Source of the DNA: Myxococcota bacterium
GTDB taxonomy: Bacteria > Myxococcota_A > Polyangia > Polyangiales > Sandaracinaceae
Assembly: GCA_036149055.1 (NCBI GenBank)
Contig: JAYZQJ010000018.1
Location: forward strand, 1-35,906
DNA: 35,906 nucleotides
Reading direction: 5' to 3'
Shown here: positions 18,331-25,999 of the stretch, one piece after another
Numbering within the stretch: position 1 is the stretch's first letter
How the letters are laid out: each line of letters opens with the position of its first letter
The notes under the pieces: generated by a model
What the model was told of the DNA's origin: nothing
Seen by the model: only the letters and a program-made list of their open reading frames with translations
Databases searched by the model: none
Program-made: the position numbers and the translations under genes

Positions 18331-19644
18331 GTGAGCCGACGTTGTCCGTCCTGCGGGACCGAGTACCCGGACGACACCGCGTTCTGCGGTCACGACGGGA
18401 GCGTCAACATCCAGGTGCAGCCGGAGGACGAGGAGAAGGATCCTCGGCTCGGCGAGAAGCTGGGTCAGTACATCGTGGCCGCCCACATCGCCGACGGCGC
18501 GATGGGCGCGGTCTACGAGGCGCGCAACGCCGAGACGCGCGAGCGCGTGGCGGTGAAGGTGCTCCACACCGACGTGGAGGAGGACGAGATCGCGGTCGAG
18601 CGCTTCAAGCGCGAGTACGAGACCGCCGACATGTTCGACCACCCGCACATCGTGAAGGTGATCGACTTCGGCGAGACCGCGGACGGCCAGCACTACATGA
18701 CGATGGAGTATCTCGAGGGCATCGAGCTCGGCGAGGTGCTCCGGAACGACGGCGCGCAGGACCCGGCGCGGGCGCTGCGCATCTGCGCGCAGGTCGCCGA
18801 CGCCCTCGACCACGCGCACTCGTTCGGCGTCATCCACCGCGATCTGAAGCCGGACAACATCTTCCTGGTCCGCACCGAGGCGGGCGACGACGTGCGCATC
18901 CTCGACTTCGGCTCGGTGAAGCTGCAGGTGGAGACCGGCCCGAAGCTCACTGCCTTCGGGACCACGCTCGGCTCGCCGTACTACATGTCGCCGGAGCAGG
19001 CGAAGGGCCTGCCCGACGTCGACAACCGCACCGACGTGTTCGCGGTCGGCGCGATCCTCTACGAGCTGTCGAGCGGCAAGATCGCGTTCGAGGCGCCGAC
19101 GGTCGCCGAGATCCTGATGAAGATCGTGCGCCTGATGCCGGACCCGCTGACGACGGTGGCTCCGCAGGTGCCCGCCGCCCTCGAGCAGGTGGTGGTGAAG
19201 GCGATCGCGAAGAAGAAAGAGGAGCGCTACGCGACGCCCACCGAGCTGGTGGACGCGGCCTTCGCCGCGTACGGCATCGAGGGTGGCGCCGCCGCGTGGT
19301 CCGAGCGCCCCCAGAGCGAGCTCGCCGAGGCCCTGCTGGCCGCCGCGTCTCGACCCGCCGCGCCGGCCGAGCCGCCGCCGACCGAGTCCTCGAGCGAGCC
19401 GAGCGAGTCGTCGCCGAGCCCGGAGGCGGCGAGCGCCCCCGCGCCCAGCCCTGCGCCCAGCCCTGCTGCCCCCAGCCCGGCAGCTCCGCCGGCGACGAAG
19501 ATGGATCCGCCGCCGGCGCCGATGACCGCCGAGGCGGTCCCGGGGCTGGGCTCCGGCAACAAGATGCTGCTGTTCGCCGCGCTCGCCGGGGTCGGCCTGC
19601 TGCTGCTCGGTGGCCTCGCGATCGCGCTCGCGATCCTGCTCTGA
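18331..19644 (+). CDS. Ser/Thr protein kinase with N-terminal zinc ribbon and C-terminal membrane anchor
   Basis: CPSCG...FCGHDG, VAVKVL, HRDLKPDN, DFG, GSPYYMSPEQ, Pro/Ser/Ala linker, terminal hydrophobic helix. Confidence 0.93.
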   Translation: MSRRCPSCGTEYPDDTAFCGHDGSVNIQVQPEDEEKDPRLGEKLGQYIVAAHIADGAMGAVYEARNAETRERVAVKVLHTDVEEDEIAVERFKREYETADMFDHPHIVKVIDFGETADGQHYMTMEYLEGIELGEVLRNDGAQDPARALRICAQVADALDHAHSFGVIHRDLKPDNIFLVRTEAGDDVRILDFGSVKLQVETGPKLTAFGTTLGSPYYMSPEQAKGLPDVDNRTDVFAVGAILYELSSGKIAFEAPTVAEILMKIVRLMPDPLTTVAPQVPAALEQVVVKAIAKKKEERYATPTELVDAAFAAYGIEGGAAAWSERPQSELAEALLAAASRPAAPAEPPPTESSSEPSESSPSPEAASAPAPSPAPSPAAPSPAAPPATKMDPPPAPMTAEAVPGLGSGNKMLLFAALAGVGLLLLGGLAIALAILL

Positions 19645-19647
19645 GGG

Positions 19648-21567
19648 TCAGCTCGAGGGCGCCGACGCGGGGGCGAAGGCGTCGCCGGAGAACGTGATCA
19701 CCCGCGCCGGGCGGGCCGGGGTGCGCGACGGGCCGAGCCCGCCGCTCGCCGAGACGGTCTCGCGGCGGCCCTGGGTCGTCAGCCACTCGGCGACGCCGGC
19801 CCGGGTCGTCTCGCCGGCCACGACGGCGGCGCGGATGAGCTGGAAGGCGTCGTAGGCCTGGGCCGCGTAGGCGTCGGGCGCCTGGTCGAAGCGGGCGGTG
19901 AAGGCGTCGACGAAGGCGCGCCCGGGCCCGGTGGCGGTCGCGGCGTGGAAGGGGGTCGCGAAGAGCGCGCCCTGGAGGTAGCGAGACGCGCCGGCGGCCG
20001 CGCGATCGTCGATCGCCACCGAGGGCGCCATCAGGGTGATCGCGCGCCCGCCGCGCGGCGCCGCCTGCCCGGCCGGCGTGCTCCAGAGCCCGGCGGCCGC
20101 GAGCGCGGGCGCGATGAGGGAGAGCTGGCGCGCGGCGTCGGGCACGAAGAGCGCGTCGAAGCGCCGCTCGGCGATCCGGCCGACCACCTCGCCGAACGCG
20201 GTGGCGTTCGCCGGGTAGCGCTCGTCGGCGACCAGCTCGCCGCCCGCCGCGCGCACCGCCTCGGCGTAGGCCTCCGACATGGCCCGGCCGTACGCGTGGT
20301 CCGGGCGGAGCACCGCAAATCTGGTGGCGCCGCGCCGCCGCGCCGCCGCCACGAGCGCGGTCACCTCGCCCTGGGGCGAGGTCAAGAGCCGGAACGCCAT
20401 CGGCCCGGGGTCGGTGACGCGCGGATCCGGCACCAGGGTCAGGATCGGCACGCCGAGCTCCTGGGCGCGCTGGGCGGCGGCGCGCGCCGCGGCGCCCTCG
20501 AGCGGTCCGACGATCGCGATCGCCCGGTGCTCGGAGACCAGGTCCTCGACCGCGCGGGCGGCCCGCTCGGGATCGCCGCCGTCGTCCCGGAGCACGAGCT
20601 GCGGCGCGTCCGGCGCGGGCGGCCCCTGGGTCGGCGCGCCCGAGGCGAGCATCAGGCCGCGCACGGTGCGCTGCCCCACCTCGCGGCCCCGTCCGGTCAG
20701 CGGCACGATGGCGCCGATGACCCGCGGATCGGCGCGCTCGGTGCGCTCGGCGCGGACCGCCAGCTCGGCGAGCTCCTCGCTCATCGGGATCTGCCGCTGC
20801 CGGAGCTCGGTCACGATGGCCGAGACCCGGGCCATGTCGCCGGCGTCGAACGCGAGCCGGATCGCCCGCATCGCCACCTCCGGCCAGGCGGCGCCGTCGC
20901 GGGGGAGGGCGTCGTAGGCCTCCTCGATCGCCGCCGCGTCGCTCTCCGCGACCACCCGGCGGAGATCCTCGCGGGCCGCGCTCCGGTCCGCCTCGCCGAT
21001 CTCCTCGGCCGCGCCGAGCCGGTCGAGCGCCTCGAGCGCGAGCACGGTGCGCTGCTCCTGCTGGGCGGCCGCCGCGAGGGTCCGGAGCAGGAGCACCGTC
21101 TCGTCCGGGTCGGTGGTGCGCCCCACCAGGGGCTCGAGCAGCGCGAGGGCCTCGGCGTGGCGTCGCGACAGGTGGAGGGCGACGCCCTGGTAGAAGCGGC
21201 CGGCCTCGGCCGCGCGCTCGTCGTCGGAGGTCGCGACCTCGGCGAAGAGGGCGAGCGCCGCCTCCACGTCGCCGTTGGCGAGCAGCACCCGGCCGAGCCC
21301 GAGGCGCGCGACCGGCACGAGGGGGTCGCGGGGGTGCCGCTCGAGGAACGTCCGGTAGCCGCGCTCCGCGTCGTCGACCTGGCCCGCCTCCGCGGCGTCG
21401 CGCGCGGCCCGGAGATCGGCCTCGGCCTCGGGGTTCGAGGTGGTGATCGACGGGAGCGTGCCGAAGTCGTCCTGCCCGCTGCTGCGCGGGCACCCGGTGA
21501 CGGTGACCATGGCGGCGACCGCGACGAAGAGGCCGACGCGACGGAGGCGAGACGGACGGGTGCTCAT
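19648..21567 (-). CDS. LpoA-like lipoprotein (TPR region + type-1 periplasmic binding fold)
   Basis: Lipobox VTGC; TPR-like helices (YRTFLERHP, ARLGLGRVLL); IGAIVPLTG, AIVGPL, YGRAMSEAY, FDALFVPD, AAQAYDA. Confidence 0.8.
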   Translation of the reverse strand: MSTRPSRLRRVGLFVAVAAMVTVTGCPRSSGQDDFGTLPSITTSNPEAEADLRAARDAAEAGQVDDAERGYRTFLERHPRDPLVPVARLGLGRVLLANGDVEAALALFAEVATSDDERAAEAGRFYQGVALHLSRRHAEALALLEPLVGRTTDPDETVLLLRTLAAAAQQEQRTVLALEALDRLGAAEEIGEADRSAAREDLRRVVAESDAAAIEEAYDALPRDGAAWPEVAMRAIRLAFDAGDMARVSAIVTELRQRQIPMSEELAELAVRAERTERADPRVIGAIVPLTGRGREVGQRTVRGLMLASGAPTQGPPAPDAPQLVLRDDGGDPERAARAVEDLVSEHRAIAIVGPLEGAAARAAAQRAQELGVPILTLVPDPRVTDPGPMAFRLLTSPQGEVTALVAAARRRGATRFAVLRPDHAYGRAMSEAYAEAVRAAGGELVADERYPANATAFGEVVGRIAERRFDALFVPDAARQLSLIAPALAAAGLWSTPAGQAAPRGGRAITLMAPSVAIDDRAAAGASRYLQGALFATPFHAATATGPGRAFVDAFTARFDQAPDAYAAQAYDAFQLIRAAVVAGETTRAGVAEWLTTQGRRETVSASGGLGPSRTPARPARVITFSGDAFAPASAPSS

Positions 21568-21606
21568 GAACGGTCTTTCCCACCCGCGGCCAGCGCGGGC
21601 AAGATC

Positions 21607-21635
21607 GTGACAGAGGGGAGGGCGCGCGGCAGGCT
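21607..21635 (+). promoter_or_regulatory. Putative promoter directly abutting the start of the PFK-2/FBPase-2 gene
   Basis: GTGACA-17 nt-CAGGCT, then 6 nt to GTG 21642. Confidence 0.45.
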
Positions 21636-21641
21636 CCGGCG

Positions 21642-22880
21642 GTGAGCCTCCTCGACGGTCGGCGCGACCCCACGCGCCTCGCGCTGGTGATGGTCGGCCT
21701 GCCGGCGCGCGGCAAGACCCACATGGCCCGGCGCCTCGCGCGCTACCTCCGCTGGCTCGGGGTGAGCACCCGGGTCTTCAACGTCGGCAACTACCGTCGG
21801 CAGCGGCTCGGCAGCCACCAGAGCCACGACTTCTTCGACCCCGACAACCCCGAGGGGCGCGCCGCCCGCCGCGAGATGGCGATGGCGGCCCTCGAGGACA
21901 TGCTCGCGTGGTTCGCCTCCGGCGGCGAGGTGGGGCTCTACGACGCCACCAACACCACGGCCGAGCGCCGGCGCATCGTCGCCGATCGCATGCGGGCGCA
22001 CGGGCTGGACGTGGTCTTCGTGGAGTCGGTCTGCGAGGACGAGGCGGTCATCGCCTCCAACATCCGGCAGACCAAGCTCCGCATGCCCGACTACGCCGGG
22101 GTGAGCGAGGACGAGGCGGTCGCCGACTTCCGGGCCCGCATCGCGCACTACGAGCGGGTCTACGAGACCGTCGGCGAGTCCGAGGGCAGCTACGTCCGCG
22201 TGATCGACGTGGGGCGCAAGGTCGAGGCCCATCGGGTGCAGGGTTACCTCCCGTCGCGCCTCGTGCACTTCCTGATGAACCTCCACGTCGCCCCGCGCTC
22301 CATCTGGCTGACGCGCCACGGCGAGAGCACCTTCAACGTCGACAACCGGGTCGGCGGCGATCCGGGGCTGAGCCCGCGCGGGGAGCGGTTCGCCGAGGCG
22401 CTCGGCGGCTACGTGCGCGACCTCGACCCGTCCCGGCAGGGGATGCGGGTCTGGACCTCGACCCTGCGCCGCACCCGCGAGACCGCGGCGCGCATCGGCC
22501 TGCCGACCGAGGAGTGGCGCTCGCTCGACGAGATCGACGCCGGCGCCTGCGACGGCATGACCTACGACGAGATTCGCGAGGAGCTGCCGCGCGAGCACGC
22601 CGCCCGCCGCGAGAACAAGCTCGCCTACCGCTACCCGCGGGGCGAGTCGTACGTCGACGTGATCCGGCGGCTCGAGCCGGTGATCCTCGAGCTGGAGCGG
22701 GAGCGCCGGCCGGTCCTGGTGGTCGCTCACCAGGCGGTCCTGCGCGGCCTCTACGCGTATCTGATGGACCGCCCGCCCAAGGAGGTGCCCTATCTCCCGG
22801 TGCCGCTCCACACCGTGATCCGCCTGACGCCGATCACCTACGGCTGCGAGGAGGAGCGGATCGAGCTCGGCGCCCCTTGA
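21642..22880 (+). CDS. Bifunctional 6-phosphofructo-2-kinase / fructose-2,6-bisphosphatase (eukaryote-type PFKFB)
   Basis: Kinase domain: MVGLPARGKT, FNVGNYRR, YDATNTTAERR, FVESVC. Histidine phosphatase domain: IWLTRHGES, WTSTLRRT, LDEIDAGACDGMTY, YRYPRGESY, RLEPVILELER, VAHQAV. Confidence 0.93.
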   Translation: MSLLDGRRDPTRLALVMVGLPARGKTHMARRLARYLRWLGVSTRVFNVGNYRRQRLGSHQSHDFFDPDNPEGRAARREMAMAALEDMLAWFASGGEVGLYDATNTTAERRRIVADRMRAHGLDVVFVESVCEDEAVIASNIRQTKLRMPDYAGVSEDEAVADFRARIAHYERVYETVGESEGSYVRVIDVGRKVEAHRVQGYLPSRLVHFLMNLHVAPRSIWLTRHGESTFNVDNRVGGDPGLSPRGERFAEALGGYVRDLDPSRQGMRVWTSTLRRTRETAARIGLPTEEWRSLDEIDAGACDGMTYDEIREELPREHAARRENKLAYRYPRGESYVDVIRRLEPVILELERERRPVLVVAHQAVLRGLYAYLMDRPPKEVPYLPVPLHTVIRLTPITYGCEEERIELGAP

Positions 22881-22929
22881 TCCGGTGCCCGCCGGGCGGA
22901 TATGCCTGCGCCCCGGAGGGACCACCGTG

Positions 22930-23727
22930 ATGCACTGGAAGATGGCGGCCGGGGTGCTGGCCGTGTGTACGCTGCTGGCCAGCGCGAGCGTGGAGGCGCA
23001 GCGGCGTCGCCGGGGCAACCCCGAGCTCGACGCGGCCGTGGAGCAGCTTGGCGCCGACGACCGAGATCAGGTCCGCGCGGGCCTGGAGACGCTCGGCCTC
23101 ATGGGGGATCCGGGCGCGGTCGCGCCGATCTCGGAGCGCATCCGGCGCGGGCTCCCGCCCGACCTCCTCGACATCGCGGTCGACACCCTGACCATCCTCG
23201 GTCGGGCCGAGGCGGGGCCGATCCTCTTCGAGCTCGCGCGTCATCGCCGGGCCGGGATCCGCCTCAAGGCGGTGCAGGGCGTGGTCGCCACCCGCCCCCG
23301 GGGCGCGGCCCGCGTGCTGGTGGCCGCGCTCTCGGACACCGACGAGACGGTGCGGGCGGCCGCCGCGGAGGGCCTCGGCACCCTGGGCGCGCGCGAGGGG
23401 ATCGACGATCTCTTCCACGCGCTCGACCGTCGCGTGCCCAACGCGGCGATGGCCATCGGCCAGCTTGCGCGCCCGGCGGAGGTGGACCGCTTCCTCGGCT
23501 ACCTCGGCCAGCTCCCCTTCGACCAGGTGACCCCCGCGCTCAGCGAGATCCTGCACCGCGACGACCTCGCCGAGCGGGCCAAGCTCGCGGTCGTGCACCG
23601 CCTCACCGAGCTCGCCACCCCCGAGGTCCGGACCTTCCTCGAGGACTACGTGAGCGGGCTCGACCCGGACGATCGCTCGCAGGTGCGGCGCGCGGCCGAG
23701 GACGCCATCCCGAGGATCGGACAATGA
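22930..23727 (+). CDS. Secreted HEAT-repeat protein
   Basis: Signal peptide ending VEA-Q; HEAT units (LSDTDETVRAAAAEGLGTLG); GGAGG SD; start GTG 22927 or ATG 22930. Confidence 0.85.
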   Translation: MHWKMAAGVLAVCTLLASASVEAQRRRRGNPELDAAVEQLGADDRDQVRAGLETLGLMGDPGAVAPISERIRRGLPPDLLDIAVDTLTILGRAEAGPILFELARHRRAGIRLKAVQGVVATRPRGAARVLVAALSDTDETVRAAAAEGLGTLGAREGIDDLFHALDRRVPNAAMAIGQLARPAEVDRFLGYLGQLPFDQVTPALSEILHRDDLAERAKLAVVHRLTELATPEVRTFLEDYVSGLDPDDRSQVRRAAEDAIPRIGQ

Positions 23728-25526
23728 CGCGTGTGATGATGTTGTGTGTCGCGGCCGCGATGGTCGGCTGCGGCGGTGGCGCGGACGCGTTCCGGCCGAC
23801 CTTCCCGGACAACCGGAGCGACGCGCTCGGCGACATCGCCGCCCGGCTCGCCTCCGCGCCTCCCGCCTCCGACCGTCCGCTCGCGGTCGGCCTGACCGCG
23901 GAGCCGCATCGGCTCTACGCCTACGATCTCGAGGCCGGCCGGGTGCTGTGGGAGGAGGCGGTGAGCGAGCCGCAGTCGGCGCCGCACGTCGCCGGAGACC
24001 TCGTGATCCTGCACGAGGGCGGCCGGGTCGTCGGGCGGCGGGCCGCCGACGGACGCGTCGCCTTCCAGGTCGACGACACCCGCCTCTCGCTGATCGGCGC
24101 GGCCGGCGAGGGCGACCTCGCGGCGTTCGTGCTCTCCACCACCGGCGGCGTCGGCGCGCAGTCGCGCGTGTACGTGGTCCGGGGCGGCGGCGTCGTGGCG
24201 CACGCCGACGCCGAGGTGGCGGTCGGCGCGCCGGCGGTCCGCGGCGACCTCGTGATCGTGCCGTGGGGCAGCCAGAACGTCTCGTTCCTCGACGGCGTCA
24301 CCGGCGCCGAGGTCGCGCGCATGCGCTCGCTCGCCGGGGTCGTCAGCCACGCCACCGTGGAGGGCGGAGAGCTCTTCTTCGGCCAGGCCGGGGTCGGGCG
24401 CCTGACGCCGACCAGCGCGAGCGGCGCGGCCGAGGAGGTGGGCTGGGTCCAGCCGGAGACGACGCGCCTCCCGGGCAGCCCGCCGCTCTGGCGGAGCGCC
24501 TACGATCCGCCGGCCGGCCCGCGCAGCGCCGAGCACAAGATCCGGGTCTCCTTCGCCCCCCGCGGCGAGGGCGGCGCGGTCGGCTTCAGCGACGACACCC
24601 TCTACCTCTCGTTCTACCGGCTGATCTTCGGCCTCACGCCCGGCGATCTCTCGCCGCGCTTCGCCTACCAGCACCCGAGCGACGTGGTCGGGGCTCGCGC
24701 GATCGACGGCGGGGTCGTGGTCGCCGACGCCGGCGGCGGCGTGAGCTTCGTCGGCACCGACGGAAGGCCGCGCTGGAGCGTCGACACCGGCAAGGAGCCC
24801 ACCGTGGTGGCCCTGCGCCTGGGCGCCTTCCGGCCGCAGGGCAGCCCCGAGGGGGAGGCGAGCCTGCTCGCCGAGCAGCTCCTCTCGGTCGCCCAGAGCA
24901 CCGACGCCCGCCTGGTGCCGGGGCGCGCGTTCGCGGTCAGCGCGATGGCCGGCCTCGAGGACGAGGCGGTGACCGGGCACCTCATCGTGCTCTGCGACGA
25001 CCGCTCGATGCCCGAGGCCATCTGGCAGGCCGGCTGCGCCGCCCTCGGGCAGCGCACGAGCGGCGCGGCGTCGGTCCTCGCCGCGCTGCGTCGCCACGCC
25101 TCCTTCCTGGAGGACACGGTCGCGCCGGCGGTCGGGCCCCTGGCGACGGTGGCCGCGCGGCTCGAGCTGCGCGACGCGGTGCCGCTGCTGGTGGGGCACC
25201 TCTCGGACCCCGGCACCCGCGCCGAGGACGTGCCGGCGCTCGCCGAGGCGCTCGCGTCCTTCGAGGATCAGAGCGCGGCGCGCCCCCTGCGCGACTTCCT
25301 CTGGCTCTATCACGCGGAGGGTGAGGAGGCGCTCCAGGCGGGCCTCGTGGCCGTGGCGCGCGCGCTGATGGCGCTCTCCGGCCCGGCGGGGCGGGACGAC
25401 GTGCAGGAGGTGATCGACGCCCCCTTCACCGCCGCCGGCGTGCGCGCCCAGCTCGCCGAGGTCGTGCAGGCGCAGGCCCAGGCCGAGCAGCAGCAGGAGG
25501 CAGAGGCCGCGCAGGAGTCGGAGTGA
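23724..25526 (+). CDS. Lipoprotein with PQQ/BamB-like beta-propeller and C-terminal HEAT/alpha-solenoid
   Basis: Lipobox AMVGC; propeller blades (LYAYDLEAGRVLWE, FLDGVTGAEVAR, DGRPRWSVD); helical C-terminus (CAALGQR, AVPLLVGHLSDP). ATGA overlap. Confidence 0.8.
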   Translation: MTRVMMLCVAAAMVGCGGGADAFRPTFPDNRSDALGDIAARLASAPPASDRPLAVGLTAEPHRLYAYDLEAGRVLWEEAVSEPQSAPHVAGDLVILHEGGRVVGRRAADGRVAFQVDDTRLSLIGAAGEGDLAAFVLSTTGGVGAQSRVYVVRGGGVVAHADAEVAVGAPAVRGDLVIVPWGSQNVSFLDGVTGAEVARMRSLAGVVSHATVEGGELFFGQAGVGRLTPTSASGAAEEVGWVQPETTRLPGSPPLWRSAYDPPAGPRSAEHKIRVSFAPRGEGGAVGFSDDTLYLSFYRLIFGLTPGDLSPRFAYQHPSDVVGARAIDGGVVVADAGGGVSFVGTDGRPRWSVDTGKEPTVVALRLGAFRPQGSPEGEASLLAEQLLSVAQSTDARLVPGRAFAVSAMAGLEDEAVTGHLIVLCDDRSMPEAIWQAGCAALGQRTSGAASVLAALRRHASFLEDTVAPAVGPLATVAARLELRDAVPLLVGHLSDPGTRAEDVPALAEALASFEDQSAARPLRDFLWLYHAEGEEALQAGLVAVARALMALSGPAGRDDVQEVIDAPFTAAGVRAQLAEVVQAQAQAEQQQEAEAAQESE

Positions 25527-25999
25527 GGGCGCGCGGGCTCGCGCTCGGCCTGCTCCTCGTCGCCGCGTCGGCGGGGGCGCAGGCCGACGACGCGCTCGCG
25601 GCGACCGTCGATCCGGACCCGATGGAGCTCGCCCGCGCGGCGCGCCGGGCCGGCGACGCGGCGGTGCTCTCGCGGCTGGACGCGTCGATCACCGCCATCC
25701 GGGCTGCGCCGGAGCTGCCGGCGCCCGAGCTGGCCGTGCCCACGCTCGCCGACGTGGCCGCGGGGCGCGACCCGTGGCTCGCGCCCGCCGCCGCCCAGTC
25801 CCTGCTCCGCATCACCCGCGATCTCACCGCGCTCGGGCTCGACCGGCGCGAGGCCGACGTGGCCGGGCTGGTGGACGCGTCGGCTCGCCTCGGCGCGCTC
25901 GCCGACGACGAGACCGCGCGGGCCGATCTGCGGGTCGCCGCCCGGCTCGCCGCCGATCGGCTCAGCTCGCTGACGACCCGGCCCGCCACGCCCGGGTGA
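25523..25999 (+). CDS. Secreted alpha-helical (HEAT-like) hypothetical protein
   Basis: Signal peptide ending AGA-Q; GTGA overlap; AVPTLADVAAGRDPWLAPAAAQSL. Confidence 0.65.
   Translation: MRARGLALGLLLVAASAGAQADDALAATVDPDPMELARAARRAGDAAVLSRLDASITAIRAAPELPAPELAVPTLADVAAGRDPWLAPAAAQSLLRITRDLTALGLDRREADVAGLVDASARLGALADDETARADLRVAARLAADRLSSLTTRPATPG

Follow-up and report, generated by a model that had tools for sequence, protein, structure and literature searches.

Fructose-2,6-bisphosphate (Fru-2,6-P2) is taught as a regulator found only in eukaryotes. The stretch of DNA analysed here (35,906 nucleotides from a member of the Sandaracinaceae, phylum Myxococcota; the window) contains a gene that an earlier note had read as an intact eukaryote-type 6-phosphofructo-2-kinase/fructose-2,6-bisphosphatase (PFK-2/FBPase-2). 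Two questions become testable with a phylum-wide bacterial clade that has the eukaryotic pocket unchanged and includes the cultured species Sandaracinus amylolyticus: do bacteria produce Fru-2,6-P2 and respond to it, and from where did eukaryotes obtain their enzyme? Bacterial copies are already in print (Desulfovibrio), and NCBI already names Myxococcota proteins 6-phosphofructo-2-kinase/fructose-2,6-bisphosphatase, e.g. that of S. amylolyticus (P0046); the copy in the window is one ordinary member, and the value lies in the clade and its candidate targets. New here are the contrast between the pockets of two bacterial clades, the co-occurrence with fructose-1,6-bisphosphatase (FBPase), a head-to-head pair with a PPi-dependent phosphofructokinase (PPi-PFK), and tree tests on the direction of transfer.

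Gene features and protein architecture

The gene, its two domains and its motifs are located in the window as follows.

21642..22880, + strand, PFK-2/FBPase-2 gene (412 aa, GTG start, open reading frame without internal stop)
21672..22295, + strand, 6-phosphofructo-2-kinase domain, aa 11-218 (Pfam PF01591, 6PF2K, E 9e-76)
21696..21719, + strand, Walker A motif GLPARGKT, aa 19-26, with K25 and T26 (K25 in 99/99 unique phylum sequences)
21777..21800, + strand, FNVGNYRR, aa 46-53 (V48, R52 and R53, equivalent to PFKFB3 V70, R74 and R75)
21942..21968, + strand, DATN (aa 101-104) through ER (D101, T103, E108 and R109, equivalent to PFKFB3 D124, T126, E131 and R132)
22302..22850, + strand, fructose-2,6-bisphosphatase (histidine phosphatase) domain, aa 221-403 (Pfam PF00300, His_Phos_1, E 2e-41)
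22314..22322, + strand, RHG, aa 225-227, with phospho-acceptor H226 (in 99/99 unique phylum sequences)
22458..22475, + strand, STLRRT with R277 (aligned to 1FBT; Arg in 99/99)
22524..22538, + strand, LDEID, aa 295-299, with E297 (motif and alignment to 1FBT)
22722..22733, + strand, VAHQ, aa 361-364, with H363 and Q364 (motif and alignment to 1FBT)

The Pfam search placed 6PF2K at the N-terminus and His_Phos_1 at the C-terminus of the 412-aa protein. The fusion in the animal/fungal order, as claimed in the earlier note, is thus present, and all six motifs on which the note relied (GLPARGKT, FNVGNYRR, DATN, RHG, LDEID and VAHQ) occur in the order and place claimed. The closest solved relative is human PFKFB3 (E 4e-132), aligned over aa 14-409 in one stretch, followed by the rat testis, human liver and heart isoforms of PFKFB. 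When the kinase domain was compared with solved structures, PFKFB chains accounted for 12/12 matches. The phosphatase domain is closest to the rat liver FBPase-2 domain 1FBT (E 2e-66), with PhoE-type phosphatases far weaker (E ~1e-13; bacterial PhoE 6e-13) than FBPase-2 (1e-65). The AlphaFold model (50-row alignment, no templates) has a pLDDT of 93 and a TM score of 0.93 to human PFKFB3; across PFKFB1-4 the TM score is 0.92-0.94 at 46-49% identity. Known PFKFB enzymes are homodimers formed through the kinase domains. The protein shares domain order, fold, Fru-6-P pocket and phosphatase residues with animal PFKFB1-4 (PDB 2AXN/2DWP, PFKFB3; 1BIF, rat testis; 1K6M, human liver; 5HTK, heart), but its termini are short (the PFKFB3-aligned core is flanked by 13 N-terminal and 3 C-terminal residues) and the regulatory N- and C-terminal tails bearing phosphorylation sites are lacking; the earlier note had likewise seen no long regulatory termini.

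Active-site residues and predicted activity

All 13 residues of the PFKFB3 Fru-6-P pocket named in the accessible part of PMC3177832 (T48, V70, R74, R75, F87, R98, D124, T126, E131, R132, R189, Y193 and Y424, numbered as PFKFB3 chain position minus one) are identical in the query by alignment; the counterparts are T26, V48, R52, R53, F65, R76, D101, T103, E108, R109, R166, Y170 and Y400. The phosphatase domain has R225, H226, N232, R277, E297, Y308, R322, K326, Y337, H363, Q364 and R368 in common with rat liver 1FBT. Among them are the catalytic residues (RHG His, Arg, Glu and second His) and the substrate Arg, Lys and Tyr. Conservation was assessed on 99 unique sequences, obtained from 107 full-length proteins among 108 loci. 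K25, R52, R53, D101, T103, K145, R166, R225, H226, N232, R277, E297, R322, K326, Y337, H363 and R368 are found in all 99; less constant are R76 (98), Y170 (97), R109 (94), Y400 (93), Q364 (83) and E108 (only 37). R277 aligns to Arg in rat liver 1FBT and to Ser in PFKFB3, the latter being presumably the cause of the weak phosphatase of PFKFB3. Since the query carries the liver-type Arg and not the PFKFB3 Ser, both kinase and phosphatase activities are predicted. Judged by its residues, the protein very probably catalyses both reactions, as a genuine 2-kinase for Fru-6-P and a genuine phosphatase for Fru-2,6-P2.

Native status in the host genome

The gene has a GC content of 0.72 and a GC3 of 0.97. 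Both values fall between the extremes seen in 9 other genes of the window (0.69-0.78 for GC, 0.94-0.99 for GC3), in agreement with the host-like codon usage reported before. At least 0.89 of the sequence words were present in 14 DNA runs from 8 studies, mostly of seawater, one run being a possible source. In the four runs examined, two other studies each have one contig that covers window positions 19600-25600 without a break, with 26 and 31 differences. An orthologue in the same genus is 92% identical, with conserved synteny and a dN/dS of about 0.08; values beyond the genus (0.24-0.31) are unreliable because synonymous sites are saturated at GC3 0.97. In trees, the query groups with Sandaracinaceae sequences, and its named relatives belong to the Sandaracinaceae, the Polyangiaceae and other Myxococcota. 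The identity to eukaryotic proteins is about 48-56%, which could be taken to mean that the gene was recently inserted from a eukaryote, is a contaminant or is a chimera of the assembly. This reading is refuted by the contigs spanning the locus in two other studies and by the presence of the gene in 23/24 genomes of the family; the syntenic orthologue, the host-like GC3 and the grouping with Sandaracinaceae also speak against it, and it can be practically dismissed. No chimeric eukaryotic insert was found in the spanned interval, and the earlier judgement that recent transfer or contamination is unlikely holds. The gene is native to the host and has been passed on by vertical descent within a large Myxococcota clade of PFK-2/FBPase-2. 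Contigs from RNA runs overlap it (X16 at 21805-22004 and 22771-22943; X15 from 22668), of a kind that cannot show transcription, and a promoter/terminator scan, uninformative at this GC, returned 0 sites.

Distribution and the two bacterial clades

In the family, the 6PF2K domain is present as a single copy in 23/24 genomes (G023 included), the genome without it being 82% complete; it also occurs in 5 of the 16 other families of the order. Across the phylum, PFK-2/FBPase-2 was detected in 66/301 genomes, always as one strong copy, and the carriers are spread over 11 families, two of which account for 40/66. Annotated Myxococcota PFK-2/FBPase-2 proteins are orthologues in the same clade, 61-92% identical among the 120 matches listed, with no material difference from the query. 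A Desulfovibrionaceae match at 34% identity led to a second bacterial clade (P0272-P0391), which includes Oleidesulfovibrio alaskensis G20 (P0285) and shares 31-39% identity with the query. The earlier statement that homologues occur in a few bacteria understates how widespread they are.

The Desulfovibrio-type proteins are likewise bacterial, about 410 aa long, and have the same fusion and catalytic core (kept in 118/118), but they form a separate clade on a long branch and their pocket is changed: V48N, F65Y and loss of the Y400 segment are found in 118/118. They also differ at Y51L/V and C131N, and their substrate or dimer contact may not be the same. As judged by alignment, it is the Myxococcota clade and not the Desulfovibrio clade that keeps the eukaryotic Fru-6-P pocket. 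An excerpt of PMC9721465, citing Rider et al. 2004, states that bacteria lack Fru-2,6-P2, with D. desulfuricans as the exception. The literature searched, with few subscription papers among it, contained no study of a myxobacterial PFK-2/FBPase-2, nor any assay of the enzyme from bacteria; myxobacteria may already be discussed in Rider 2004 and in Michels & Rigden 2006. Bacterial PFK-2/FBPase-2 is absent from the accessible part of one recent glycolysis review (PMC12965863), and terms for it are absent from that of another (PMC12525153). The databases are not uniform in their naming, and some call members of the family only "broad specificity phosphatase PhoE/predicted kinase". Oleidesulfovibrio alaskensis G20 formerly bore the name D. 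desulfuricans, and the exception of Rider et al. 2004 reportedly concerned a gene.

Such names, and the lack of an assay in the literature searched, would fit an enzyme whose substrate is a different sugar phosphate, or one that serves chiefly as a phosphatase in repair and takes no part in signalling; the pocket changes of the Desulfovibrio clade indicate that the substrate may have drifted within the family. The Myxococcota clade, however, keeps the PFKFB3 pocket unchanged, its phosphatase domain scores far better with FBPase-2 than with PhoE-type enzymes, and the 99 sequences keep the kinase and the phosphatase active site side by side; this reading is thus quite improbable for the query.

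Candidate target: class I FBPase

If the enzyme is active as predicted, the kinase domain would convert Fru-6-P and ATP to Fru-2,6-P2, and the phosphatase domain would remove the 2-phosphate via phospho-His226. As there are no regulatory tails, the balance of the two activities is probably set by metabolite levels, and Fru-2,6-P2 would be a read-out of hexose-phosphate supply. It would inhibit the single class I FBPase of the host at its active site, so that abundant Fru-6-P would hold back both gluconeogenesis and futile cycling; in other lineages it may act on a phosphofructokinase (PFK). A regulatory role of Fru-2,6-P2 in vivo is considered likely, and class I FBPase is put at about an even chance of being the main target in the host.

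The host genome encodes one class I FBPase (G000:C149:10799-11830), of the E. coli type and with conserved active-site motifs, and gave no match to GlpX; PGI, pyruvate kinase and glycogen phosphorylase are also present. The model of the host FBPase (pLDDT 80) matches 2QVR with a TM score of 0.87, an entry titled as E. coli FBPase with citrate, Fru-2,6-P2 and Mg2+ bound. The receptor, described before as unknown, is therefore less of a blank than stated, with the host enzyme as candidate. According to the accessible part of PMC5639204, Fru-2,6-P2 competes for the active site of the mammalian and Leishmania FBPases and so inhibits them (Ki 1.9 uM), and the Leishmania enzyme has the same Tyr-to-Asn change as that of E. 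coli; the host enzyme likewise has Asn at this position. The same sensitivity is described for plant cytosolic FBPase in an excerpt of PMC12675262. Binding of Fru-2,6-P2 is a general active-site property of class I FBPase, and so gives no sign of selection for regulation.

Class I FBPase was found in 61/66 carriers of PFK-2 and in 101/235 non-carriers of the phylum, a contrast inflated by kinship (11 families, with 40/66 carriers in two of them); in 5/66 carriers it was not found. It is present in 23/24 genomes of the family (G023 included) and almost universal in the order, with or without PFK-2 (39/41). The co-occurrence in carriers and the solved Fru-2,6-P2 complex of the E. coli enzyme make it the best host target. 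Against it stand the 101 genomes that have class I FBPase without a PFK-2 gene, the lack of any FBPase gene in the flanks of the 108 loci (1.3 Mb, partly redundant), and the neighbours of the host PFK-2, which are envelope and repeat proteins.

Phosphofructokinases and other candidate receptors

Plant PFP is activated by Fru-2,6-P2, and the same chemistry could have a PFK as its main target, with Fru-2,6-P2 activating a PPi-PFK or a PfkA of GGNG type. PFK-2 lies head-to-head with a gene of one PPi-PFK clade in 14/20 carriers of family f47 and 1/5 of family f41 (15/25), with 83-321 bp between the aligned starts, and one such carrier (G272) has no class I FBPase that could be found. A GGNG-type PfkA gene lies ~5 kb from PFK-2 in 2 further unrelated loci of the 108, and this subtype is present in 27/66 carriers versus 40/235 non-carriers. 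PFK-family genes thus occur near PFK-2 in three independent settings (rough chance 0.01-0.02). The pair, however, may be one inherited arrangement (3 genera, with their PFK-2s in one subclade), and its PPi-PFK clade is not enriched in carriers (15/66 vs 75/235) and has no member in the host. The three host PFKs (360-403 aa) are single-domain proteins far below the cut-off TIGR02478 for eukaryotic PFK-1, whose tandem-duplicated form with a regulatory half is absent in the host by this test, and M. tuberculosis PfkA is barely activated by Fru-2,6-P2 according to an excerpt of PMC7867265. A PFK as main target is accordingly held to be unlikely.

The head-to-head pair is kept in genera with GGDD and with GGDG (L146:7111-9616 in G162:C1, and L200-L224): genus g109 has GGDD (6/6) and genus g124 GGDG (8/8), with PKTIDND in 7/7 checked. 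This split suggests a switch of phosphoryl donor with the linkage kept, as far as motifs can tell. Representative PPi-PFK genes of such pairs are G162:C1:983377-984615 for the GGDD type and that of G182 for the GGDG type. The PPi-PFK is NF041103-like (543 bits; cut-off 550), and its closest solved relative is 9DQM, a T. vaginalis enzyme with a putative effector site in the portion of PMC12203962 available. The PFK-2 proteins of the f47/f41 subclade (L144, L146, L147, L150, L160-L163 and L185) have Arg at Q364 in 8/9, a replaced Y51 in 9/9 and mostly Asn at C131. The lineage in which PFK-2 is linked to PPi-PFK thus shows an altered active site.

The host PfkA (L022:1303-2385 in G000:C88) has GGNGS instead of GGDGS, and PASIDND; GGNG is shared by the best 20/20 relatives. 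It represents a myxobacterial PfkA subtype altered at the position of a Mg ligand. A eukaryote-like nature of this PfkA was rejected: its top PDB matches are eukaryotic because the scores of two halves add up, and per domain the best score is with Bacillus-type PfkA. Another host protein of the PFK family (L023:1438-2601 in G000:C213) is highly divergent (Pfam E 2.5e-33). As a regulatory subunit binding Fru-2,6-P2 it was rejected as a general partner, since it is found in 3/301 genomes compared with 66 PFK-2 carriers.

Alternatively, Fru-2,6-P2 could be made and sensed by a pyruvate kinase, a glycogen enzyme or a transcription factor; in 25/66 carriers, neither of the two PFK subtypes searched for is present. 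Trypanosomatid pyruvate kinase responds to Fru-2,6-P2. In three genomes of genus g114, which are f30 carriers without a class I FBPase found, a pyruvate kinase (PK)-barrel gene lies ~3.7 kb from PFK-2:

L176:12630-13631 (also in L169 and L171), PK-barrel gene, 333 aa

This link is limited to one genus, and to a barrel of 333 aa that is not adjacent to PFK-2. The neighbours scanned with Pfam (141 of 198 chosen) are heterogeneous and show no recurring transcription factor; PFK-family and PK-like genes are the only recurring metabolic neighbours across the 108 loci. A receptor of this kind is rather doubtful, and class I FBPase remains the preferred target in the host.

Neighbouring genes

The genes next to PFK-2 in the window are the following, all three being given for context only.

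19648..21567, - strand, TPR and periplasmic-binding (LppC-like) protein, divergent neighbour (near the gene in 9/20 family-level loci)
22927..23727, + strand, HEAT-repeat protein, downstream
23724..25526, + strand, PQQ/BamB-like beta-propeller protein, downstream

These three genes (window 19648-25526) are linked to PFK-2 in part of the family only, and PFK-2 is better conserved than they are in every locus holding them. A conserved operon throughout the phylum was rejected, as the neighbour clusters (70 sequences) are lineage-limited.

Phylogeny and direction of transfer

In a FastTree of 210 rows, the Myxococcota form one clade (support 0.995; 78 rows, three without organism). Its stem is short and arises amid rows of eukaryote type; the branch leading to the Desulfovibrio clade is long. 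The Myxococcota clade had a support of 1.0 in a tree of 236 rows, and a quick IQ-TREE tree of 74 rows under a mixture model gave it an SH-aLRT of 89. When 43 rows were used, a row of no stated organism (P0136) fell inside the myxobacterial set (support 80). The query does not group with the Desulfovibrio sequences, which form a separate clade (support 1.0/100). Among 30 tree representatives, 12 were eukaryotic, 1 was from Myxococcota and 17 had no stated organism, and in the topology tests named eukaryotes made up only 10 of the 46 non-bacterial rows. In the best tree found under LG+F+G4 (lnL -42927.9), the Myxococcota are monophyletic and nested in the eukaryotes, which are paraphyletic; the reverse nesting, with monophyletic eukaryotes within the Myxococcota, is 1.7 log-likelihood units lower (lnL -42929.6, p-AU 0.61). 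None of the seven trees (0/7) was rejected under this model, in searches that had not converged. Comparison with eukaryotic PFKFB, as proposed in the earlier note, separates the Myxococcota as a clade, but the trees cannot tell a transfer from a eukaryote to a myxobacterium from a myxobacterial origin of eukaryotic PFKFB.

An acquisition by eukaryotes from myxobacteria has been proposed before for sterol synthesis. A combined reading, in which the Myxococcota have a genuine Fru-2,6-P2 circuit (acting on class I FBPase here and on PPi-PFK in the head-to-head lineage) and eukaryotic PFKFB derives from a myxococcotal gene via the eukaryote stem, is tentative and is given a low probability. A p-AU of 0.046 against myxobacterial monophyly in a fast LG test is a search artefact, because the unconstrained tree itself had the Myxococcota monophyletic. 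One protein of 1069 aa (P0122) contains two complete PFK-2/FBPase-2 units in tandem and groups among the non-myxobacterial rows.
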